Origin: an uncultured Planctomycetales bacterium
GTDB lineage: Bacteria; Omnitrophota; Gorgyraeia; Zapsychrales; Fredricksoniimonadaceae
Reading direction: 5' to 3'
Length of the DNA: 60,972 nt
Assembly (NCBI GenBank): GCA_964483785.1
Contig: CAZACW010000008.1
Span: forward strand, 1 to 60,972
Part shown: positions 15,301 to 23,025 of the stretch, piece by piece
How the letters are laid out: the number at the start of each line of letters is the position of its first letter
How positions within the stretch are numbered: the stretch's first letter is position 1
The notes under the pieces: model-generated
What the model was told of the DNA's origin: nothing
What the model saw: only the letters and a program-made list of their open reading frames with translations
Database searches by the model: none
Program-made: the position numbers and the translations under genes

Positions 15301-15940
15301 AAGCATTCCAGCTTAAGTTAATCTGGCTGGTGGAAACGGCCGTAGCCGTCAAACCTGCCGGCTGGCTGGGCGGCGTTGTATCTGCGGGCGCATTTAAACT
15401 GATATTGGAAACCGCAGCATCACCAACGACATCGCTGTATTTATTGATATACGCCAAACTGGTGATCTTGGCTTGGGGTGAACGGAATGCGTAATTGGAC
15501 GCCAGCGTTGTTTGCGCACCGGTTGTTGATACATAAACACTGTAGGTATGCTTTGCCATGTTGACGGCCATTTGAAAATGATACGTTGTGCCCGCTGTAT
15601 AATGATAGGTCACTGCGGCACTGTAGCCGTTAAGATTCATGATATCGATATTGCCGTTGCTGTTGAAGCGTACAATGGCGGCAAGCCCAGAATACGTTGA
15701 GGCAGGCGTGTTGGAAAGACCTATAACCTGGTCTTCATTGTTGACGCAAGGTGAAGCATTAAAATATAGATTGAATGTGCCGGTCTGCGCAGTATAAGAA
15801 GAGTTGGCCCAGGTTTGGGAACTGACCAAACATTGGCCCATGTTGACTGAGGCCGCGGCATTTAAGGCAGGAGCGCAAAGAAACAGTAAAACAGCTGCAA
15901 AAATATTTCTGATGGAGAATACTTTGGATAAAGTTTTCAT
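12392..15940 (-). CDS. Large secreted surface protein with a duplicated lectin/LamG-like module, FN3, four InlB-B-repeat-like Ig modules, a right-handed beta-helix and two 4-Cys modules
   Basis: 1182 aa. Domains by aa position:
- 1-30: signal peptide (MKTLSKVFSIRNIFAAVLLFLCAPALNAAAS).
- 44-183: module A; 488-627: its paralog A'.
- 186-275: FN3-like (LTATAVSTSQINLSWNASSDNVGVAGYNIYRNG).
- Four ~70-aa repeats (TLTVSxGSNGTISPSG..VNYGASQTFTLTPAAGYTxSLxVDGT..LSNITSxHAV).
- About 855-1075: beta-helix-like (NYFLGG, IAYNTMDGGG).
- 432-481 and 1127-1178: Cys modules. Confidence 0.85.
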   Translation of the reverse strand: MKTLSKVFSIRNIFAAVLLFLCAPALNAAASVNMGQCLVSSQTWANSSYTAQTGTFNLYFNASPCVNNEDQVIGLSNTPASTYSGLAAIVRFNSNGNIDIMNLNGYSAAVTYHYTAGTTYHFQMAVNMAKHTYSVYVSTTGAQTTLASNYAFRSPQAKITSLAYINKYSDVVGDAAVSNISLNAPADTTPPSQPAGLTATAVSTSQINLSWNASSDNVGVAGYNIYRNGTKVGSSTTTSYTDSALSASTTYSYTVAAYDAAGNVSAQSTSVSATTQTQTETLTVSAGSNGAISPSGMLTVNAGTSQTFTVTPNAGYNASLSVDGTNVSLNNNAYTLSNITANHTITASFTIQSETLTVSAASNGTISPSGNVTVNYGASQTFSLTPAAGYTASLTVDGTAVTLSNNSYTLSNITSSHAVAAGFVPVPPVNGACDTANLSQAASAPTSNLCSSGNASSVSGGAAGPWTWNCNGTNGGSNASCIAYSSVWSSTPFTAQSGSFTATVTAVPSANNEDTVVGLSSAAASAYTNMAAIVLFSNNGTIVVRNGSNYTADAAMAYTAGTAYTIKFTVNIPAGTYSVTATPAGGAAVALATNYTFRTEQAGVTSLGFLNKYSDMPGDAALSPLSVVPIIQTVTLTVYGGNNGTISPTGSVVVNYGASQTFTLTPAAGYTPSLSVDGTNVTLSNNTYTLTNVIAVHTVIANFAAQTDTLTVSVGSNGTMSPSSNVTVNYGASQTFTLAPAGGYTANLTIDGLPAVLTNNVFTLNNITSNHAVAAAFSQANNNACPQGTAYADGCSAASGGSNNAQHPTLFSAYAKRPAWNVAGVDYAVGVPAGLALKDPTAPGALPACAVFNTSKQIYVSDNCTIDGYDFSVQGGGFQLYVAGSNISVVRNYFLGGVPVNQAAGTSNIYIAYNTMDGGGANGDTSFGEIINLNGIGAVIEYNWIKNTPQHFVSLGNGGSLIYQYNLLENGALTPCTGISNCPHLNFLQWMAGPSNNPQFAFNTVVQNDWILQPGEMIQMYNNLTGSITNASVNNNVIIATLNPGQTPPNPVSSVFHLGGTPNTSGIADNNWINASGTYAGAASGWLYNGIDYPGWTYGSNMDLTSSGSQLSAPNAPLSGSAVNAACGSANGVMTPTKPIANLCAVGSLSTNGVGEYGNNGVWGWTCVGTNGGSNASCVAGV

Positions 15941-15970
15941 ATATAAAGCCCTCTATAAGGCAAACAAGTT

Positions 15971-16005
15971 AATAATAAACCCGGCATGTGAAAAACACAC
16001 CCGGG
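15971..16005 (-). terminator. Intrinsic terminator hairpin (putative riboswitch expression platform)
   Basis: On the minus strand, the hairpin CCCGGGUGUG-UUUUU-CACAUGCCGGG is followed by UUUAUUAUU. It lies between the GEMM-I aptamer and the SD (GAGGG) / ATG of the surface protein gene. Confidence 0.65.
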
Positions 16006-16017
16006 CAATCCTCCGTT

Positions 16018-16121
16018 GTTCTTTGCAGTTCGGCTGTCTTTTCCCATACAAAATCAAGGGATTTAGACCCGATCCTTTGCGTCCTAAGGTTTCCCTCAGT
16101 TTGCCCTAAATTCTAAAGAAC
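16018..16121 (-). promoter_or_regulatory. c-di-GMP-I (GEMM-I) riboswitch aptamer
   Basis: The minus-strand RNA reads GUUCUUU AGAAUUUAG GGCAAAC UGAGG GAAA CCUUA GGACGCAAAG GAUCGGGUCUAAAUCCC..GGGAAAAGACAGCCGA ACUGC AAAGAAC.
- It carries the class signatures GGCAAAC, a hairpin capped by a GAAA tetraloop, GACGCAAAG, and CGGGUCU...AGACAGCCG.
- A 7-bp P1 helix (GUUCUUU/AAAGAAC) closes the fold.
- The motif order and spacing match my recollection of the V. cholerae Vc2 aptamer. Confidence 0.85.
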
Positions 16122-16318
16122 TTATACTACAATATAAAAGTAACATATGTTTGGGGATGGTGCAAATCAGGGGATGTCAAAAAATATGTAACTACATATA
16201 AATAAACAATTTATGAAAATAATAAATTTGTGTTAAGGCCCAAGATAATTAGGGAACGCACCTATGGAACACACAAAAATTGGCGCAAATAGCATTCGGC
16301 AGGTATACTTAGGCTATA

Positions 16319-19300
16319 ATGCTAAAGGATATAAATCTAAAAATTACTATAACCTCAGGGCTTCTTATTGCCTTTTTGGCAAATACGTTTGGGATCTTTT
16401 CCGTGGCCCAAGCGCAGGAATTCATGTTGCCCAAGCCAGGGGTCATGGTGCCGTTAAGCCCTGCCTTTAACCCTCCGGTCCTTAAAGGCCTCAAAGTCCA
16501 TCCAAACAATCCATTCAGATTTGATTTTATTCTGGATAAAGGCGATAGCCGGTTAGGCAATGACCAGCTTAAAACCGAATCAACCAGGCTGATTAAATAT
16601 TTTCTGGCCTCTTTGACCATTCCTGAAAAAGACCTTTGGGTCAATCTCTCGCCATACGAAAAAGACCGCATTATCCCGCAATCATTTGGCTTAACGGAAA
16701 TGGGCCGTGATCTTTTGGCTGAGGATTACATGCTTAAACAAATTACAGCCAGCTTGATTTATCCAGAAGGTGAAACCGGCAAGCGATTTTGGCGGCGAGT
16801 TTATGTCGAAGCAGCCAAAAGATTTGGGACAACGAATATTCAAGTGAATACTTTCAACAAGGTGTGGATCGTTCCGGAAAAAGCGGTTGTCTTTGAGAAT
16901 GCCAAGGCAAAAACAGCTTATGTGGTTGAATCAAGATTAAAAGTCATGCTTGAACAGGATTATCTTTCACTTGAAAAACACGAGGGTATACAAAGCATTG
17001 CTTCTGTGACTAAGAATACAAATCAAATAGGCAGCCAAATTGTCCGAGAAATTGTGATTCCTGAATTGACCAAGGAAGTCAATCAAGACAAAAATTTTTC
17101 TCAACTGCGCCAAGTCTATCATTCATTGATTCTGGCCACCTGGTACAAGAAGAAAATCAAAGACAGTATTTTAGCGGCGGTCTATGAAAACAGAAATAAA
17201 GTCGCCGGTGTTAACAACGACGATCCAAAGGAAAAAGAACGGATTTATGAACGGTACTTAGAAGCTTTTAAAAAGGGGTCATATAACTATATTAAAGAAG
17301 AAATCGATCCGTTAACACAGCAGAGTGTCCCTAGAAAGTATTTTTCAGGGGGCCTGACAATGGATCAACAGGCCATGGATAAAGCAATGATTATAAAAGA
17401 TATATTCCGGCCAAGCATGTTAAAGAAAAGTCCAATTAGCTCAGGGATGATGTTAATTGGGGCTTCTATGTTCATCGCTTCACAAGTTAATTCTATTCAA
17501 TATCCAAATCTGGCGGGAGTGGGTGGAGCGTTAGGTGTGGTCTTGTATTTTGTGTCGTATTGTATGGTTTTTGTGGTTCCAAAAATAAATCCTTATCATA
17601 TTATGACATCGAAGCAAGCGCGTTATAGCTCAACGGGGGCCAGAGAATTAACAGAGGCTGATTTTTATTTAATAACGTATGGAAGAATTAATTTTTCAGA
17701 GGCTTTAAAAAATAGAAATTTCGAGCAGGCGGGACAAATCGTTCGAGCTTTGAATACATTGATAATGGACAATCCATACGTTGGAACTTCCGATTTAAAA
17801 GAGGAAATCAATTCAATGTACGGTGAATTGTGGGATGCTGAGCATTCCGATAGCCGTGCCGGGACGGATTATAATGGATATTACGCCACCATAGGGGTTG
17901 AACGTCATGCATCCCCTGAAGTCATCACCGGTACCTATAGAAGGAAGGCCCGTAGAGTTCATCCTGATGTTCCAGGGACCGGATCTGCCCCGGAGTTTTT
18001 GAAGCTCAAAGAAGCTTATGATGTTTTAAACGACCCGGAAAAAAGAAAGATGTACGACCAAGGCAAATGGCCAAAGAAAGAAGATCAGGCGCAGACAATT
18101 GATGCGGCGATGAATGTGGATAAAAAAGCCATTGCAGCAACCGAGGCAACATCTGGAAAAACAGCCTTATTTGAGAAATTTTTAGAAGATTTGAGAGAGC
18201 AATTAGCAGGTAGTTATTTGACAATGCCGTTAAGGGATGGGCGTAATTTGACATTGCAATTGCAGTTAAATTCCGGGGGTTGGTTTTTTGCTGTCGATGT
18301 CTATCCATTTGACATTAAAAATGAGACGGAAATCAGAATAGGAAGAGGCCAATTTTCTGCATTGGAACCAGTATTCAATATTGAACCATCAAATCATTTT
18401 TTAGCTTCAAGAAAGACAATAGGGAAAATACTTTTTATGGTTAGAGTGGATGCACAAGGTAACCCCATTATACTGTTTGAAGAAAACCAGCCTAGTTTGG
18501 GTTTTAGAATGATCCCTTTAAAGCAACAGGAATTGTTTTTCAATTGGATTGAAGTTGTTCAACAGAGGATCATGAACATAGCGTATCAACTGGGTGCAGT
18601 CAATTTTTACGCGCATACTGCTGAGTACATAAAAGAATCATATCCATCGATTAGCGAAGTTAATTTGGACTTAAATTACAGAAGGGTTAATAGTGTCAAG
18701 AAGGGTTGGAAAAAAACGGAGTTGGACATTTTTAACAATGGCAAGAAACAAGAAGTATGGCGCTATACAGGTTTTGATACAGCCATGAATTCATTATTAA
18801 ATGATGCGCTTAGGGCCTTAAAGGCACAGCAAAATGATCAGTTTAAAACCAAAATAGTGGCATTCATGGAGCAATTGATTGTTGAACAGAAAGAGCACGG
18901 TATCAGCCACTGGCAAGTGGTAGAACCCTTCAAGGACCTGATTGAGTACGTTGAAAATCCGTCGACCCCAGTTGCCCAATTGCGATTTTTGGAAGAAATT
19001 TCCCAACAGCTTCGTCCATATCAAGCTGATTTGCGCATCGCCGCTCCTTTGGGAATATTGGTCTCCAGCATTAAACGCTATAGAACCAAGGAATGGGGTG
19101 GGATGAATGATTTAAATGCTTTAACAAATCTTAACGCACTTTTGGATAATCAATTGTTGTCCGCTTATCAAAGAAAGATTGTCAGTGATGCCAGGGCAGG
19201 TTTAGCGGATGGTTCATGGCACCCGGGAATTAACCCATTGTCCCAAATGTTGGATGAATACCGTAGGATGATCCTTTTAGAAGATGGTTTGGATTTTCCG

Positions 19301-21889
19301 CCGCGTACCCGCAGAGATATTTATTTGCCTATAAGCGCTCAAATGAGGGAATTTTTATCAGGGCAACTCAACCAAGATATGCCGGGGAGTGTTTTTTTAA
19401 CTGACCAGTCGGGACGTACTTTGCTATATCAATTTCACCCCATTGCTGCGGTGAGTCAGCCTTATATAGGAATGATTATTCATAAAAGTGGGATTCCTCT
19501 TAGAATGGCCATCAAAGATAAGACTTTTAAGCAAAGGGATTATGACCATGTTAGCCATTTAGGAGGGACCAAATTATTATCAATTCTTAATTGTCCCGTG
19601 GCGTGGGTTTTCGAGGGGGCACGCTATGTTTATATCAGGGAAATCAGAGACAGGGAAATTACCGATTATATAAATGAAGATTTTCCGACCGCATCCCCAG
19701 AAATACATAAACGGTTTTTCTTTGCTTTGGGGGTGGCTATGTCAGAGGCATATATTTTGGGCATGTCCGACCGGAGAAGGAACTTGATTGTAAGTTTGAG
19801 GCGATTGGCGGAATTTGACACCAATTCTTTGAGTGAGGCTGGAAGCAGGGCCATTTTTAATATTGACCGTGAGAATGTCTTAACACCCAAGCAGATATCA
19901 AGACCGCCAATGGAAGACATTGACGAAGCTGCTAGTATGCCTAACGGATGGAGAAGGTGGGTTCCTCCTATCGAGAGACCAATATTTGATGATAATTTGT
20001 CATATTATCTCGATGGCTTTAAACAAGGTTTTCGGTCTATCCAAGCCTATTTTAGGGTCCAACAGAATGTCATTAAAGAAAAGATCATGGGAATAGCCCA
20101 AAGCGAGGGCAGTCCTTATGGGGCCAATATTATTGAACGCCTTAAACTTTCAGACCCCAATATTGACGCATTAGCGGATAAAATTAAAGCAAAAGCAGAA
20201 GCTCTTTTTAAATTACCTGATAGTCCAGATTCTGATGATGAAGCTATGACCGTTACGGAATTATTGAGCTTAGACCCTGTTAAAGCAGATATACAATTAC
20301 ATCTCTTCAGTTCACATAATTTGTGGGCGCTTAGAAATAAATGGTTGGAAGAATATGAACAAACACAGAGTACTGACACTCTCCGTGCGTCCAGGGTCCT
20401 ATTTGCATATATTTTTAAGAGTGCATTAGGCGCCGAACAGTCCAAAAAACTATCCAAACTGGTTGATTTGTTAGAGTCAGCCAATGATCCGGAAATTGAA
20501 TTGCGGAATGGGGCTGTTAGTTTATCTGAATTGAAAGGGTGGCAAGAAGATTTAGAGCCATTATTTTCAAAACTGTATAAATACGGCGTCCGCGAGATGT
20601 CCTATACCGTGGAACTCACCGTTGATTATATTAAGAATGAAATAAATCGCAGAGAACCTTCCCATGATGAGCCACAGCTCGAACGGTTAAAACAACTTGC
20701 AATGGCAGGGCCCATAGACAGAGAAAAATTAAAGCGATATCTTGTGGCTAATGTTTCTTATAGCGAATTGGATATGTGGTCCTATTTTTTATCGCAAGGC
20801 AGGTCTGGTTTAAGGCCCCAAAAGATTGGTTTTGATGAGTACCGTCAACGGATGAGAGACGCATACGAGGTTGTTGTTCAGGCCTTAAGCCGGGTTCTTT
20901 ATAATCATTATATGGAGTTTGAACCCGTCAACGATGATGAAGGTAAAAAAAGGCTTGAGACCAAAGCCAATGAAAATTTGATCCATAAAGGATATGATTT
21001 AGTATCCAGTTCTGAGATAAAATCGGATGCGGCGATGAATGCAGAGATTACTCAACTGTTGCAGGAAATGCGTGAAGGCGCAAGGGGTGATGCAATAATG
21101 GCATTTACCAGATTGAAGCAATTGGATCCGAGATATAACAACATGATTCCCGTAGACATGTTGTTTAGGGTCATGTTAGAGGAGCAAAAAGAGAATAAAA
21201 ATGTTAATGTGGTCATGGATTTCCCTCGTGAAAATGTATTTGTCGAGAGACGCAAAACGGGCCGGGGAACGTTTGAGTCGAGTGTCATCAATGAACTTAT
21301 TATCAATGCTTTCAAATATACCCCAGAACATGGGACAATCACCGTAAAATTGCGTCAAGAAGGCGGCCGTGTCCTGTTTTCAGTTAAGGATACGGGCATT
21401 GGTATTCCAGATGCAGATAAAGAAAAGGTTTGGCGAGATTTATACCGGGCGCCAAATGCCATAGCAGTACATCGTGGAACGGGAACTGGATTATATAGCA
21501 TGCGTTTGGTCATTCAACGTGATTATGATGGGACCATCAGCTTTGAGAGCAAGGAGGGCGAAGGAACGACTTTTACTGGCAATATCGCCAAGGGAAATGT
21601 TCCGGATCCAGCGATGATTCCAAATGGCAGGGATGTAAACCGAAGATTGGTTCGGGAGAGTTTTACTCCCGCTAAAGGCGGTATCGATCTTACCTCAGAT
21701 CAAGCTCTGACTGTCCAAAATAACGGGCAGGCCATCAAATTTCATGTTGATCCCGCGCAACTCAAAGAGCTCCAAAATGCCCCTGGTTTTGTGCCGGTCA
21801 TTATAGATTTTCAACCAATGACCGACATTCGTTTTTGGCTCGGCCTTGATGATCACCAGCCCGCTGGTCATCCCATAACCAGTATTTAA
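16319..21889 (+). CDS. Giant (1856 aa) multidomain membrane protein: signal peptide, conserved N-module, TM segment(s), J-domain, long unknown region, orphan HATPase_c domain, conserved C-module
   Basis: - Signal-peptide-like N-terminus (ITSGLLIAFLANTFGIFSVAQAQ).
- Hydrophobic stretch at aa ~375-421.
- J-domain at aa ~519-582 (YYATIGVERHASPEVITGTYRRKARRVHPDV...LKEAYDVLNDPEKRKMYDQG, with HPD at 548-550).
- GHKL/HATPase_c boxes at aa ~1654-1756: N box INELIINAFKY, G1 DTGIGI, G2 GTGTGL.
- No H-box precedes the ATPase.
- The gene is AT-rich compared with its neighbours. Confidence 0.85.
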   Translation: MLKDINLKITITSGLLIAFLANTFGIFSVAQAQEFMLPKPGVMVPLSPAFNPPVLKGLKVHPNNPFRFDFILDKGDSRLGNDQLKTESTRLIKYFLASLTIPEKDLWVNLSPYEKDRIIPQSFGLTEMGRDLLAEDYMLKQITASLIYPEGETGKRFWRRVYVEAAKRFGTTNIQVNTFNKVWIVPEKAVVFENAKAKTAYVVESRLKVMLEQDYLSLEKHEGIQSIASVTKNTNQIGSQIVREIVIPELTKEVNQDKNFSQLRQVYHSLILATWYKKKIKDSILAAVYENRNKVAGVNNDDPKEKERIYERYLEAFKKGSYNYIKEEIDPLTQQSVPRKYFSGGLTMDQQAMDKAMIIKDIFRPSMLKKSPISSGMMLIGASMFIASQVNSIQYPNLAGVGGALGVVLYFVSYCMVFVVPKINPYHIMTSKQARYSSTGARELTEADFYLITYGRINFSEALKNRNFEQAGQIVRALNTLIMDNPYVGTSDLKEEINSMYGELWDAEHSDSRAGTDYNGYYATIGVERHASPEVITGTYRRKARRVHPDVPGTGSAPEFLKLKEAYDVLNDPEKRKMYDQGKWPKKEDQAQTIDAAMNVDKKAIAATEATSGKTALFEKFLEDLREQLAGSYLTMPLRDGRNLTLQLQLNSGGWFFAVDVYPFDIKNETEIRIGRGQFSALEPVFNIEPSNHFLASRKTIGKILFMVRVDAQGNPIILFEENQPSLGFRMIPLKQQELFFNWIEVVQQRIMNIAYQLGAVNFYAHTAEYIKESYPSISEVNLDLNYRRVNSVKKGWKKTELDIFNNGKKQEVWRYTGFDTAMNSLLNDALRALKAQQNDQFKTKIVAFMEQLIVEQKEHGISHWQVVEPFKDLIEYVENPSTPVAQLRFLEEISQQLRPYQADLRIAAPLGILVSSIKRYRTKEWGGMNDLNALTNLNALLDNQLLSAYQRKIVSDARAGLADGSWHPGINPLSQMLDEYRRMILLEDGLDFPPRTRRDIYLPISAQMREFLSGQLNQDMPGSVFLTDQSGRTLLYQFHPIAAVSQPYIGMIIHKSGIPLRMAIKDKTFKQRDYDHVSHLGGTKLLSILNCPVAWVFEGARYVYIREIRDREITDYINEDFPTASPEIHKRFFFALGVAMSEAYILGMSDRRRNLIVSLRRLAEFDTNSLSEAGSRAIFNIDRENVLTPKQISRPPMEDIDEAASMPNGWRRWVPPIERPIFDDNLSYYLDGFKQGFRSIQAYFRVQQNVIKEKIMGIAQSEGSPYGANIIERLKLSDPNIDALADKIKAKAEALFKLPDSPDSDDEAMTVTELLSLDPVKADIQLHLFSSHNLWALRNKWLEEYEQTQSTDTLRASRVLFAYIFKSALGAEQSKKLSKLVDLLESANDPEIELRNGAVSLSELKGWQEDLEPLFSKLYKYGVREMSYTVELTVDYIKNEINRREPSHDEPQLERLKQLAMAGPIDREKLKRYLVANVSYSELDMWSYFLSQGRSGLRPQKIGFDEYRQRMRDAYEVVVQALSRVLYNHYMEFEPVNDDEGKKRLETKANENLIHKGYDLVSSSEIKSDAAMNAEITQLLQEMREGARGDAIMAFTRLKQLDPRYNNMIPVDMLFRVMLEEQKENKNVNVVMDFPRENVFVERRKTGRGTFESSVINELIINAFKYTPEHGTITVKLRQEGGRVLFSVKDTGIGIPDADKEKVWRDLYRAPNAIAVHRGTGTGLYSMRLVIQRDYDGTISFESKEGEGTTFTGNIAKGNVPDPAMIPNGRDVNRRLVRESFTPAKGGIDLTSDQALTVQNNGQAIKFHVDPAQLKELQNAPGFVPVIIDFQPMTDIRFWLGLDDHQPAGHPITSI

Positions 21890-22187
21890 ATAACAGGGGA
21901 TGCGGCCCTGATCTTTCGGTTTGCCGGATTTTTATCTTTTAGTGAAATGCTCAGGTTCTCTCCGTAGCTTTAAATATCTCCTTTATCGACAACGTCCAAA
22001 GGATCATTAATTTCATTGTTGCCGGTTTTTTCTTATATATTTCCTTGGGGATTATTTTTTGAATTATTACCATAGTCTTATGGTTGATCACTAAGGCCTT
22101 GTTGGCTCATTAAAGGGTCGTTTTAAGGCCCTGGCTGGCCTTCCGAGGGGCCTTCCAGGGTCTAACAGCCAAATTTATGTATGTTGC

Positions 22188-22216
22188 TTGACAAATATCT
22201 CAATATGAGATATACT
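22188..22216 (+). promoter_or_regulatory. sigma70-type promoter with overlapping palindromic operator for higBA
   Basis: TTGACA (22188-22193), a 17-nt spacer, then TATACT (22211-22216). The palindrome ATATCTCA-ATA-TGAGATAT (22195-22213) covers the spacer and the -10 element. The SD AGGAGG lies upstream of the ATG at 22240. Confidence 0.7.
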
Positions 22217-22239
22217 CTCATCAGATAGAGGAGGTAAAA

Positions 22240-22530
22240 ATGCATGTTATATCAAGAAGGGCTTTACAGGTCTTTTGGGAGAAAAATCCAGACAGCGAAG
22301 GGTCTCTTAAAGCGTGGTTTAAGATCGTCAGTCTGTCGGAATATCAAGGGTTTAATGATTTGAAAAAGACCTTTGGCTCGGTAGATAAAGTAGGAAGCAA
22401 GTATGTGTTTAATATAGGTGGCAATAAATATCGGTTGGTTACAGCTATTCATTTTAATACTGGAAGAATATATGTGCGAGCTGTCTTGACACATAAGGAG
22501 TATGACAAAGAGGAGTGGAAAAATGGTTAA
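22240..22530 (+). CDS. higB: Type II toxin HigB (RelE-fold mRNA interferase)
   Basis: 96 aa. MHVISRRALQVFWEKNPDSEGSLKAWFKIV...GGNKYRLVTAIHFNTGRIYVRAVLTHKEYDK is the typical HigB-toxin family pattern. The toxin gene comes before the antitoxin gene, as in higBA loci. Confidence 0.85.
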   Translation: MHVISRRALQVFWEKNPDSEGSLKAWFKIVSLSEYQGFNDLKKTFGSVDKVGSKYVFNIGGNKYRLVTAIHFNTGRIYVRAVLTHKEYDKEEWKNG

Positions 22531-22927
22531 AATAATCAATGAACCAGTTTTGAAAAAGACCTGGCCTACAGTTGAGCAATATCTTTCCATTCATACAAAG
22601 CAAGATTATGAAAATGCCATCATTGTGCTTAATCATTTGTTAGATGAAGTGGGTGATAATAAAGATCATCCGTTGTTTGGTTTTATAGAAATTTTGGGTA
22701 TTGTTATAGAAAACTATGAAACAGAACATCATGATTGGGAAGATGCTTCAGGAGTTGATGTTCTTAAATATTTAATGGAAGAACACAATTTAAATCAAAC
22801 GGACCTTTCTGAAATAGGTTCTCAAGGTGTTGTTTCAGAAATTTTGAATGGTAAGCGGCAATTAAATGTTAATCAAATTAAAAAATTGGGTGAAAGATTC
22901 CATGTAAAACCGGCAGTTTTTTTATAA
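22523..22927 (+). CDS. higA: Antitoxin HigA, XRE-type HTH
   Basis: The ATG at 22523 overlaps the higB stop; an alternative in-frame ATG lies at 22502. The C-terminal HTH is LKYLMEEHNLNQTDLSEIGSQGVVSEILNGKRQLNVNQIKKLGERF. Confidence 0.8.
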   Translation: MVKIINEPVLKKTWPTVEQYLSIHTKQDYENAIIVLNHLLDEVGDNKDHPLFGFIEILGIVIENYETEHHDWEDASGVDVLKYLMEEHNLNQTDLSEIGSQGVVSEILNGKRQLNVNQIKKLGERFHVKPAVFL

Positions 22928-23025
22928 TTTAGGATAAATATATGCTATATTTTAGATGCCCTCAAAAAATCCGTATACACCCGCCAAATTTATTGTATAA
23001 TTCGACGTCAGTTTAAGCGATTTAC

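Follow-up and report, generated by a model that had tools for sequence, protein, structure and literature searches.

A J-domain and an orphan HATPase_c domain as separate cassettes in a member of an Omnitrophota family of modular proteins

The 1856-residue protein and its surroundings

The window analyzed here is a stretch of 60,972 nucleotides, which we place in the Omnitrophota since the ArgRS it encodes shares 80% identity with sequences from Candidatus Omnitrophica. The gene of interest is the single open reading frame of Table 1, which the first-pass annotation had described as uninterrupted and AT-rich; both descriptions hold, with a GC content of ~41% against a background of ~54%. With 41% GC, stops make up about 6% of random codons; by our own arithmetic 1856 open codons then have a probability near e^-117, and a chance origin of the frame cannot be maintained. 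An assembly chimera, which had been a concern, is also unlikely because GC is uniform over all modules (37–47%) and the same intact bracket of N- and C-terminal modules recurs in over 100 homologues that were assembled independently.

Around the gene extends a low-GC island, which includes a HigB/HigA pair as well and stops at a tRNA-Thr/Tyr/Gly cluster (tRNA-Thr, 23026); further neighbors are a GT2 gene and an fn3 protein. A c-di-GMP-I riboswitch at 16021–16115 on the minus strand (64.5 bits, gathering score 35) precedes a gene for a 1182-aa protein with fn3/CBM-like domains and an N-terminus resembling a signal peptide, in agreement with the earlier report of a divergent, riboswitch-controlled neighbor. 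The 1856-aa gene looks monocistronic. Its body is free of tandem repeats, the window holds no secretion system (T1SS genes included), protease or immunity gene, and a lookup of the protein returned no exact-sequence record. Identity as a defense system was considered and rejected, as PADLOC matches were weak and confined to the ATPase.

Table 1. Features of the 1856-aa gene and its low-GC island (window coordinates).
Feature	Position	Strand	Basis or remark
Low-GC island	15800..23000	.	30–47% GC (~41%) vs. ~54% background
Whole gene, single ORF	16319..21889	+	1856 aa
Signal peptide, aa 1–32, ending AQA/QE	16319..16414	+	hydropathy and inspection
N-module, aa 33–346, LPxPGVMV to RKYFSGG	16415..17356	+	65–79% identity to family members
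Junction motif DKAM, aa 354–357	17378..17389	+	
Cassette A, aa 358–594, TM helix and J-domain	17390..18100	+	
TM helix in cassette A, aa 398–424	17510–17590	+	hydropathy
J-domain, aa 521–580, C-terminal end of cassette A	17879–18058	+	Pfam DnaJ (PF00226), E=6e-15
Junction motif DAAM, aa 595–598	18101..18112	+	
Cassette B, aa 599–819, no named domain	18113..18775	+	
Junction motif DTAM, aa 820–823	18776..18787	+	
Cassette C, aa 824–1306	18788..20236	+	kinase-like motif order
Junction motif DEAM, aa 1307–1310	20237..20248	+	
Cassette D, aa 1311–1569, orphan	20249..21025	+	
Junction motif DAAM, aa 1570–1573	21026..21037	+	
Cassette E, aa 1574–1762, HATPase_c	21038..21604	+	
HATPase_c domain, aa 1655–1753	21281–21577	+	Pfam PF02518, E=1.5e-19
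Junction motif DPAM, aa 1763–1766	21605..21616	+	
C-module, aa 1786–1856, GGIDLT to PGFVPVII and FLGL	21674..21886	+	family alignment
Terminator-like hairpin, then T-run	21915..21928	+	shortly 3' of stop codon

The domain order read from the letters alone, from a cleavable-looking signal peptide to a conserved terminal module, is borne out by the profile searches and the family alignment. Signal-peptide and TM assignments were made by hydropathy and inspection rather than by SignalP or DeepTMHMM; they give a predicted end of the signal peptide (VAQA/QE) at aa 30–33 and place the expected hydrophobic stretch at aa 398–424, with a Kyte-Doolittle mean of 2.11 and K/R-rich sequence after the helix. 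Both anticipated Pfam domains, DnaJ and HATPase_c, were matched. The J-domain carries its HPD at aa 548–550 and matches DnaJ/Hsp40 J-domains in the PDB with E-values down to 2.8e-11. The G/F region, zinc finger and C-terminal substrate-binding domains of class A/B DnaJ are absent, and the DnaJ_bact model is matched at positions 2–67 of 354 and nowhere else; from its sequence this is a class C J-protein at most, with a putative ability to stimulate the ATPase of an Hsp70. Homology of cassette A to DjlA was rejected, as NCBIfam gives generic DnaJ-type matches and none specific to DjlA. The HATPase_c domain shows an N box (1658), a DxGxG G1 box (1691) and a GxGxGL G2 box (1720), and it is an orphan as proposed: HisKA/DHp models give no match even at E≤10 on sub-segments, and no histidine occurs between aa 1557 and 1670.

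The ~1000 residues between these domains, in which no domain could be named at first, likewise have no Pfam or NCBIfam match (aa 600–1570). A word-index homologue search with aa 595–1572 found nothing, which reflects the limit of that tool, and an exhaustive HMMER search with the same segment found 30 relatives. Cassette B has ~15 weak relatives, several of them within other proteins of the family described below, cassette C has ~15 among 1.84 billion representatives, and for cassette D that search found none. The invariant residues of cassette C (IKDK ... DRxxN ... ID, corresponding to K243, D328-R329-x-x-N332 and I359-D360) follow the order seen in kinases, a resemblance without statistical support: a profile search against the PDB gave no match and hhalign against PKA a probability of 0.2%. 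We therefore keep a possible kinase identity of cassette C as a lead.

A family with fixed ends and exchangeable cassettes

The window protein belongs to a family of modular proteins that is very large and specific to the Omnitrophota. Its 119 best matches (1023–3179 aa) align to it solely at ~aa 15–350 and ~aa 1787–1845, and both aligned blocks are the matches' own N- and C-termini; in 118 of the 119 the two modules sit at the extreme ends around unrelated middles. The suspicion that conserved terminal modules bracket variable inserts in uncharacterized Omnitrophota proteins, raised in the first-pass annotation, thus proves correct. The GTDB species representatives contain at least 587 loci of the family, most of them labeled Omnitrophota, with up to 9 per MAG (one MAG supplies 9 of the best 80 loci). 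We found no description of the bracket family, its motif or its module sequences in the literature, and the family is undescribed. A phage origin was rejected, with only 3 loci in 2.9 million viral contigs.

Every member, at 0.8–3.7 kaa, combines a Sec-type signal peptide (by hydropathy and inspection) with an N-module of ~315 aa and a C-module of ~65 aa. Even the signal peptide is conserved in sequence among family members (AFLxNTFGPxPxAQAQ[DE]F). The N-module, to which the ~340-aa N-terminal module noted earlier corresponds, has the signature LPxPG ... WVNLSPYE ... YFSGG and extends in the window protein from LPKPG (aa 37) to YFSGG (aa 341–345); the identity given in Table 1 holds for aa 1–346 against 119 homologues, aligned at their N-termini. 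The terminal module is equally well recovered, starting at GGIDL (aa 1787) in the window protein: aa 1786–1856 align with the C-terminus in 118 of 119 matches, and GGID[LFMI] occurs once per protein, 56–84 aa before the end. Neither module has a Pfam or NCBIfam match or a sequence relative in the PDB. The AlphaFold2 model of the N-module is of low confidence (pLDDT 62), and its Foldseek searches against PDB and BFVD gave best E-values of 0.12 and 0.02 with TM <0.2, while the C-module modeled alone is mostly coil (pLDDT 61, pTM 0.23).

Conservation of the N-module is extreme, on par with that of ArgRS orthologues, and paralogues are saturated at synonymous sites with proteins still ~73% identical. 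Homogenization by gene conversion can be rejected since paralogues share 69% nucleotide identity within a genome vs. 67% between genomes, with third-position identity of ~0.5.

Between the end modules lie 1–12 unrelated cassettes of cytoplasmic type. They include response regulators/receivers, HTH, GNAT, SAM methyltransferases, PEP-utilizers, GGDEF, Fic, PGK, MutS-like and J-domains, most being regulators or metabolic enzymes, not toxins of the classic kind, and no adhesin-type domain (Ig, fn3, CBM, cadherin) occurs among the 119 matches. An internal hydrophobic segment is absent in 83 of 120 members (69%); ~30% carry a strong one, the window protein included, and a TM helix directly follows the N-module in ~9%. 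Cysteine makes up 0.13% of family proteins and 0.12% of cargo vs. 1.12% in neighboring genes, a depletion of ~9-fold, and 0.72% in neighbors with signal-peptide-like N-termini; members that have internal hydrophobic segments and members that have none do not differ in this level. The window protein follows this pattern with 2 cysteines in 1856 aa (0.11%, vs. 1.39% in the other window proteins), of which one falls in the ~1430 aa of cargo. Across 80 loci no conserved partner gene (protease, secretion system or immunity) lies next to family genes, and no neighbor cluster recurs in more than 8 loci or is consistently adjacent.

The borders of the cassettes are marked by the short motif [D/N]-x-A-M. 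In cargo regions D.AM is observed 332 times vs. 15 expected and N.AM 66 times vs. 14, with no enrichment of E.AM, D.GM, D.SM or D.AL in the same regions, and D.AM in 446 neighboring proteins from outside the family stands at 19 vs. 20 expected. At least one internal site is present in 118 of 120 members, and the window protein has 6 where shuffling predicts 0.08. The motif falls within 30 aa after YFSGG in 68% of members and within 30 aa before GGIDL in 68%, and in the cases checked it lies ~7–30 residues past the end of the preceding domain. The Pfam domains of five proteins each stay within a single inter-motif interval, barring one weak partial methyltransferase match, and the DnaJ and HATPase_c domains of the window protein are each inside one interval. 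Large relatives of cassette C that have no bracket (3.5–5.2 kaa) show no enrichment of the motif.

It is also important to consider at which level the motif is maintained. All four codons are used for its Ala, which points to selection on the protein, and both are used for its Asp; a purely DNA-level recombination site is therefore unlikely. The flanking nucleotides show no further conservation, and the Ala codons are biased to GCG (46% vs. 24% background). A role as internal translation start (Shine-Dalgarno plus ATG) was rejected: the 15 nt upstream carry no purine-rich signal, and domains begin 22–368 aa beyond the motif Met.

The same motif delimits exchange. A 323-aa cassette whose limits coincide exactly with the motif is 98% identical in two members (P0004 and P0005). 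The N-modules of this pair are 87.5% and the C-modules 70% identical, from which it follows that cassettes have been exchanged between members. More generally, 45% of cargo-alignment starts lie within 15 aa of a motif vs. 8.6% for random positions. Family members thus trade cassettes, and the breakpoints fall at the motif.

Comparison with known systems

A close architectural parallel is found in the MARTX toxins of Vibrio and relatives, large proteins whose conserved ends surround a recombining array of cytoplasm-acting effectors with defined inter-module sites. The bracket family is likewise large, with conserved ends, a variable recombining middle and defined sites between modules. MARTX toxins are, however, exported by type I secretion without a Sec signal peptide, carry RTX-type glycine-rich repeats at both ends and contain a cysteine protease domain with cleavage after Leu, whereas the window protein has a signal peptide that is conserved and bears an AxA site, has no T1SS genes in the window, has no RTX or C80 match in Pfam and no tandem repeats, and contains only its 2 cysteines. 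In polymorphic toxins (Rhs, CDI, MafB, LXG and similar systems) it is the variable toxin that forms the extreme C-terminus, and an immunity gene follows. These resemble the bracket family in their many paralogues and in joining a conserved N-terminal part to hypervariable recombining cassettes, but the bracket family has a conserved C-terminus, serial cassettes and no conserved neighbor gene at the 80 loci, and its cargo consists mostly of regulators and enzymes instead of nucleases, deaminases and pore-formers.

Single domains have parallels of their own. HopI1 of Pseudomonas syringae is a secreted J-domain effector that recruits host Hsp70, and DjlA of E. coli is a TM-anchored J-protein; both share with the window protein a lone HPD J-domain (class C/type III) on unrelated sequence, but no homology was detected outside the J-domain, which is here one cassette of a shuffled array. 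The HATPase_c domain matches best the catalytic (CA) domains of WalK, PhoR and VicK, sharing N, G1 and G2 boxes with sensor histidine kinases, although the window protein lacks a DHp/HisKA domain, a phospho-acceptor His and a nearby response regulator. Type IX cargo has a similar bipartite layout, an N-terminal signal peptide and a conserved C-terminal element of 60–100 aa on unrelated proteins; in contrast to the bracket family it comes from another phylum, has no conserved 315-aa N-module and carries domains of extracellular type, and the C-module does not match T9SS CTD models.

Within the same phylum, giant Omnitrophota proteins ('Archaeovorins' and others) of 10,000–147,000 aa have been described, with many TM helices, an adjacent T2SS/pilus-like locus and a proposed cleavage into smaller products (bioRxiv 10.1101/2023.11.21.568195, 10.64898/2026.06.07.730766). 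They too join a signal peptide and/or TM helices to many fused enzyme and signaling domains of cytoplasmic type, while the bracket family is far shorter and has its own N/C bracket and its own junction motif.

Interpretation of the family

The best explanation overall, to which we assign a probability of roughly one half, is a shuffled-cassette family of exported multi-cargo carriers in which the motif is a processing or junction site. A signal peptide in all members, mostly no internal TM helix, cargo of cytoplasmic type and the near absence of cysteine together suggest, from sequence features, that the cassettes act outside the producer's cytoplasm, most plausibly in a cell that these host-dependent nanobacteria use as host or prey. 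The N-module would then be a conserved handle for a putative export or translocation step, the C-module a terminal signal and [D/N]xAM a putative processing site between cassettes; the J-domain would recruit Hsp70 (DnaK), with the ATPase and kinase-like cassettes acting independently. The roles of both end modules are guesses, since the N-module model has low confidence and no known fold and the C-module is unstructured alone. Counting against the explanation, no secretion system, protease or immunity gene is conserved beside family genes at the 80 loci or present in the window, and the cargo consists mostly of regulators and metabolic enzymes instead of classic toxins. Nor is delivery of an entire chain easy to reconcile with the strong internal hydrophobic segment of ~30% of members, at which Sec arrest is expected. 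The window protein itself complicates this picture, as its TM helix should act as a stop-transfer segment and leave cassettes A–E on the producer's cytoplasmic side unless the protein is released or processed.

A more specific form of this explanation, which we hold to be tentative and somewhat doubtful, would make the bracket proteins substrates of an unrecognized Omnitrophota delivery pathway, that is, Sec-exported, cysteine-free polyproteins that are cut at [D/N]xAM and act in host or prey. If this form were true, the family would be the main effector arsenal of a host-dependent phylum. The N-module would represent a novel domain for translocation or docking, the motif a novel site of self-cleavage or of cutting by a protease, and the load delivered by the window protein would comprise a J-domain that hijacks Hsp70, a kinase-like module and a GHKL ATPase.

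Alternatively, the proteins may stay intact as multi-enzyme scaffolds at the membrane or in the cytoplasm of the producer, with the N-terminal segment as an anchor and the motif as a recombination junction that involves no proteolysis. The coincidence of shared-cassette breakpoints with the motif would be expected here, the GCG bias at its Ala hints at a DNA-level component, and fusions of many enzymes of cytoplasmic type into very long membrane-associated proteins are known from Omnitrophota (bioRxiv 10.64898/2026.06.07.730766). We nevertheless consider intact scaffolds unlikely: the free use of Ala and Asp codons and the unconserved flanks indicate a peptide-level constraint, the motif is missing from large bracket-less Omnitrophota-type proteins, and a cytoplasmic location explains neither the 9-fold cysteine depletion nor the conserved AxA cleavage site.

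Residence at the cell envelope seems improbable. Here the cassettes would be displayed or stored without delivery, the N-module docking on a coat, an S-layer-like lattice or an outer-membrane complex and the motif capping flexible linkers. The universal signal peptide, the many paralogues per genome and the extreme conservation of the N-module, as a lattice or docking contact would demand, agree with this, and S-layer and surface proteins are also typically near-free of cysteine. The cargo repertoire does not, because HTH, receiver, GGDEF, PGK, MutS-like, GNAT, SAM methyltransferase and J-domains need ATP, SAM, acetyl-CoA, DNA or Hsp70, which are unavailable outside cells; adhesin-type domains are missing from the 119 matches, and a motif in which D/N, A and M are nearly absolute is too sharp for a passive linker.

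The remaining reading, and the one favored when the protein was first described, is a purpose-built single-pass device of the inner membrane whose N-module senses events in the periplasm or at the surface and whose cytoplasmic J-domain and HATPase_c domain recruit DnaK and turn over ATP. The helix that follows the signal peptide, the K/R residues behind it, the intact HPD and ATPase boxes, a DjlA-like order of TM helix and J-domain in cassette A, and the fact that both domains require the cytoplasmic partners DnaK and ATP would all suit such a device, yet we regard it as quite unlikely: among 120 members examined PF00226 and PF02518 occur together in the window protein alone, the two domains are separate cassettes ~1000 aa apart with three other cassettes and four junction motifs between them, members exchange cassettes, the acceptor His and an adjacent response regulator are absent, and the cysteine depletion of the cargo, with its single residue and in line with the whole family, is not expected of resident cytoplasmic domains. 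The associated topology, N-module outside and cargo inside, is reasonable for this member given its one strong TM helix followed by K/R-rich sequence, but a sensor-to-cytoplasm design is not a trait of a family in which so few members have a helix after the N-module and most have no internal one. There is strong support for cassette shuffling, rather than co-evolution as a signaling device, as the origin of the J-domain/HATPase_c pairing.

These results carry a warning that striking domain combinations in such proteins, J-domain plus HATPase_c included, should not be taken for designed devices. The [D/N]xAM rule offers a simple way of parsing family proteins into functional units, and processing could be sought in existing metaproteomes. 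Omnitrophota are abundant, uncultivated, ultra-small bacteria that are thought to depend on or prey upon other cells. They have been described as host-dependent or predatory (PMC10066038; bioRxiv 10.1101/2023.11.21.568195), and for their giant proteins missing information on cleavage points is said by the authors to block analysis (bioRxiv 10.1101/2023.11.21.568195). As a large, phylum-specific family with near-constant end modules and freely swapped cargo, the bracket proteins are a strong candidate for the molecular interface of these bacteria with their hosts.

Architecture of the window protein and its family

The window protein is encoded by a genuine, uninterrupted ORF of 1856 codons, and the layout that a first-pass annotation had read from the sequence holds at the level of its domains (see table). 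The AT-rich gene lies in a low-GC island (~41% GC vs. ~54% elsewhere in the window), and the riboswitch said to control the divergent neighbor does precede that gene. The protein carries a signal peptide, ending between AQA and QE, a strongly hydrophobic segment, a J-domain, a HATPase_c domain with its N, G1, and G2 boxes all present, and the C-terminal module. The claimed absence of an upstream H-box/HisKA agrees with the lack of any HisKA match and of any His from aa 1557 to 1670, and the middle is indeed nameless, with no Pfam or NCBIfam match in aa 600-1570. Parsed by the junction motif [D/N]-x-A-M found at cassette borders, the order of modules is N-module, cassettes A, B, C, D, and E, and C-module.

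Features of the window (nt) and modules of the window protein (aa)
Feature	Position	Strand	Remarks
LPS-core and lipid A cluster	1983-12336 nt	+	long
1182-aa protein gene	12392-15940 nt	-	downstream of riboswitch
Low-GC island	~15800 to 23000 nt		ends at tRNA-Thr/Tyr/Gly cluster
c-di-GMP-I riboswitch	16021-16115 nt	-	64.5 bits
Window protein ORF	16319-21889 nt	+	1856 aa
HigB toxin and HTH antitoxin	22240-22927 nt	+	30-36% GC
tRNA-Thr(TGT), tRNA-Tyr(GTA), tRNA-Gly(TCC)	23026-23785 nt	+	cluster
192-aa ORF	23064-23642 nt		strand opposite tRNA cluster; probably spurious
752-aa polytopic membrane protein gene	32193-34451 nt	+	no Pfam match
N-module	aa 37 (LPKPG) to aa 341-345 (YFSGG)
Cassette A	aa 358-594		TM helix and J-domain
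Strongly hydrophobic segment	aa 398-424
Pfam DnaJ match	aa 521-580		E=6e-15; HPD at aa 548-550
Cassette B	aa 599-819		no named domain
Cassette C	aa 824-1306		no named domain
Cassette D	aa 1311-1569		orphan
Cassette E	aa 1574-1762		HATPase_c
Pfam HATPase_c match	aa 1655-1753		E=1.5e-19
C-module	from aa 1787		begins GGIDL

A homolog search with the window protein gave 3,983 significant matches among 8,000 scored candidates. The best 119 of these (1023-3179 aa) align through their own N-termini at query aa ~15-350 with 65-79% identity and again through their own C-termini at query aa ~1787-1845, and their middles are unrelated, which bears out the first-pass suggestion of an Omnitrophota family with conserved ends around variable inserts (hereafter the bracket family). 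More divergent N-modules, of ~50% identity, occur in members such as P0128, P0136, and P0138. The precomputed Pfam content of these 119 is varied (adenosine deaminase, GNAT, SAM methyltransferases, PEP-utilizers, HEAT, WD40, HTH, receiver domains, GGDEF, Fic, PLD, metallophosphoesterase, PGK, MutS-like ATPase, and others), and about 70 of them have no Pfam domain at all. Models for the N-module or C-module were found in neither Pfam (2025 copy) nor NCBIfam (2026). There is practically no doubt about family membership or the cassette architecture.

With each GTDB species represented by a single genome, a scan gives at least 587 bracket-family loci, most of those listed being labeled Omnitrophota, and a single MAG supplies 9 of the best 80; IMG/VR holds only 3. 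In 80 of the family loci examined for shared neighbors, no conserved neighbor gene was found. The ENA label of some family records is “uncultured Planctomycetales”, and that of another names Candidatus Elulimicrobium; the latter member (L072, DYOU01000064.1), on a contig assigned to a Patescibacteria group in the NCBI taxonomy, represents either mis-binning or a rare non-Omnitrophota case. The window itself is Omnitrophota chromosome: its ArgRS shares 80% identity with Candidatus Omnitrophica sequences, and its flanks encode TopA, a XerC/D-type recombinase, KdtA, LpxK, LPS glycosyltransferases, GpsA, and RecJ. At several related loci (L017 2520-7235, L047 10001-14715, and L020 10001-13797) the N-module and C-module parts lie in consecutive separate ORFs, which are split or pseudogenized family genes or assembly errors. 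Some members (P0006, P0034) are named “ribosomal protein L21E” in JGI annotations, probably through a spurious COG match to the IKFH(L/V)DP stretch of the C-module.

Across 80 related loci (L001-L080), the GC content of family genes averages ~3 points under that of their flanks, and the gap in the window is ~13 points. The nearest N-module DNA found is just 74% identical, so that there is no recent donor in the data. The island stops exactly at tRNA-Thr, as expected of an integrated island, and its most AT-rich part is the HigB/HTH pair at its 3' end, which also matches the PADLOC PD-Lambda-2 A/B models. The 192-aa ORF overlaps the tRNAs. The divergent 1182-aa protein starts with a signal-peptide-like sequence, contains domains of fn3 and CBM-like type, and has 17 Cys, a contrast to its practically Cys-free neighbor. 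The LPS cluster (KdtA, LpxK, a lipid-A acyltransferase fused to an ELM1-like domain, a GT4-GT9 fusion, a GT4 glycosyltransferase, and three more heptosyltransferase-family genes) implies a diderm envelope, and a strong T-over-A skew (-0.25) further downstream is due to the 752-aa polytopic membrane protein gene.

Junction motif and cassette exchange

The window protein has six D-x-A-M sites (aa 354, 595, 820, 1307, 1570, and 1763), where shuffling predicts 0.08. In the cargo regions of 120 members, D.AM is seen 332 times vs. 15 expected and N.AM 66 times vs. 14 expected, and the specificity is sharp, since none of E.AM, D.GM, D.SM, D.AL, D.AI, and the spacing variants rises above expectation. 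At least one internal site is present in 118 of the 120, and D.AM is at chance outside the family (19 vs. 20 expected in 446 neighboring non-family proteins). Every Ala codon and every Asp codon is in use and no flanking nucleotide pattern is seen around the motif, and therefore the constraint acts on the peptide.

The motif marks module borders. Blocks common to the window protein and other members (query aa 625-818 and 827-1336) fit between motifs, as do the stretches from the exhaustive search described below. The significant Pfam domains of the window protein, P0002, P0007, P0016, and P0019 each fall inside one inter-motif interval, with a weak partial methyltransferase match in P0016 as the sole exception, and the motif usually follows ~7-30 aa downstream of the domain end. 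It lies within 30 aa after YFSGG, the end of the N-module, in 68% of members and within 30 aa before GGIDL in 68%. About half of the family also carry it inside the C-module (consensus FHLDPAML), where the window copy reads DPAQ (aa 1810-1813).

Exchange is evident in two members, P0004 and P0005, which have in common a 323-aa cassette of 98% identity whose ends match motifs (870-1192 and 387-709, respectively), whereas their N-modules are just 87.5% and their C-modules 70% identical; the next module is the C-module in one protein and another cassette in the other. Of the internal cargo alignments, 45% start no more than 15 aa from a motif, compared to 8.6% for random positions. Among the 120 members, PF00226 and PF02518 occur together in the window protein only. 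Given this exchange and the uniqueness of the pairing, the apparent coupling of J-domain and HATPase_c is best read as one product of shuffling.

An exhaustive HMMER search of 1.84 billion representatives gave only 30 relatives for aa 595-1572, comprising ~15 for cassette C, mostly within other very long proteins, ~15 weak ones for cassette B, and zero for cassette D. The motif is absent from bracket-less relatives of cassette C. The invariant residues of cassette C, in order IKDK ... DRxxN ... ID, recall a kinase catalytic core, which we treat as a lead only; its profile had no match in the PDB, and against PKA the hhalign probability was just 0.2%, though the expected residues aligned.

Constraints on mechanism and possible export

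All full-length members have a signal-peptide-like start, with a conserved c-region (PxPxAQAQ[DE]F). Cys makes up 0.13% of the family overall and 0.12% of the cargo (0-6 per protein of 1-3 kaa, 2 in the window protein), compared to 1.12% in neighboring genes and 0.72% in neighbors with signal-peptide-like N-termini, and the depletion is the same with or without internal hydrophobic segments. Proteins that have to pass unfolded through membranes or narrow channels, such as colicins, substrates of T1SS and T3SS, and passengers of autotransporters, are typically purged of Cys in this way. Because a signal peptide and near-total Cys purging accompany cargo of a cytoplasmic type, which would be unworkable in a periplasm devoid of ATP, SAM, and DNA, we suggest that bracket-family proteins are exported carriers whose cassettes would act in another cell. 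Such a role would fit the Omnitrophota, which have been described as host-dependent or predatory (PMC10066038; bioRxiv 10.1101/2023.11.21.568195).

At synonymous sites, N-module paralogs from the same genome differ as much as N-modules from different genomes do (third-position identity ~0.5), which rules out gene conversion as the cause of their likeness, and they are still ~73% identical in protein; they are old paralogs under very strong purifying selection. Neither module matches anything known in Pfam or NCBIfam, nor does the N-module among PDB sequences. The predicted structure of the N-module is an alpha/beta model of low confidence, for which Foldseek gave no match; aa 105-139 are best conserved yet lowest in model confidence, and the C-module alone is without a fold in AlphaFold2.

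On the export reading, the invariant N-module could be the handle by which the protein is exported, docked, or translocated. The C-module could act as a docking strand or as a signal at the terminus, and [D/N]xAM could be a processing site, with the Asp/Asn at its first position hinting, speculatively, at an Asp/Asn-specific protease or succinimide-type self-cleavage. We assign this overall statement a probability of about 0.5; its export and processing part is tentative and falls somewhat short of even odds. If the motif were instead a junction only, the members would be intact multi-enzyme scaffolds, which seems improbable to us.

The main difficulty for export is the TM-like segment in the window protein and ~30% of the others, which should arrest Sec translocation. 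A strongly hydrophobic internal segment is absent in 83 of the 120 members, and where found such segments are scattered, lying directly after the N-module in only ~9%. The topology proposed earlier for the window protein, with the N-module outside and cassettes A-E inside, is plausible. An envelope or surface scaffold that is not delivered is unlikely in our estimation, and equally so the signaling device of the first-pass annotation, whose J-domain/HATPase_c pairing shuffling explains best.

Giant Omnitrophota proteins are known from two preprints (bioRxiv 10.1101/2023.11.21.568195; 10.64898/2026.06.07.730766), the first of which proposes cleavage and states the cleavage points as unknown; neither describes the bracket family, the motif, or Cys depletion, and nothing relevant was found in literature text on the motif or module sequences. 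The logic of the family is similar to that of MARTX toxins, although the defining features of MARTX are absent here. The original observation is confirmed, and the function first read into it is not: the window protein belongs to a large family that shuffles its cassettes, is uncurated, and has several unusual, easily testable properties. We rate this family among the modular polymorphic carrier or effector proteins, and it might turn out to represent a delivery system of a categorically new kind.
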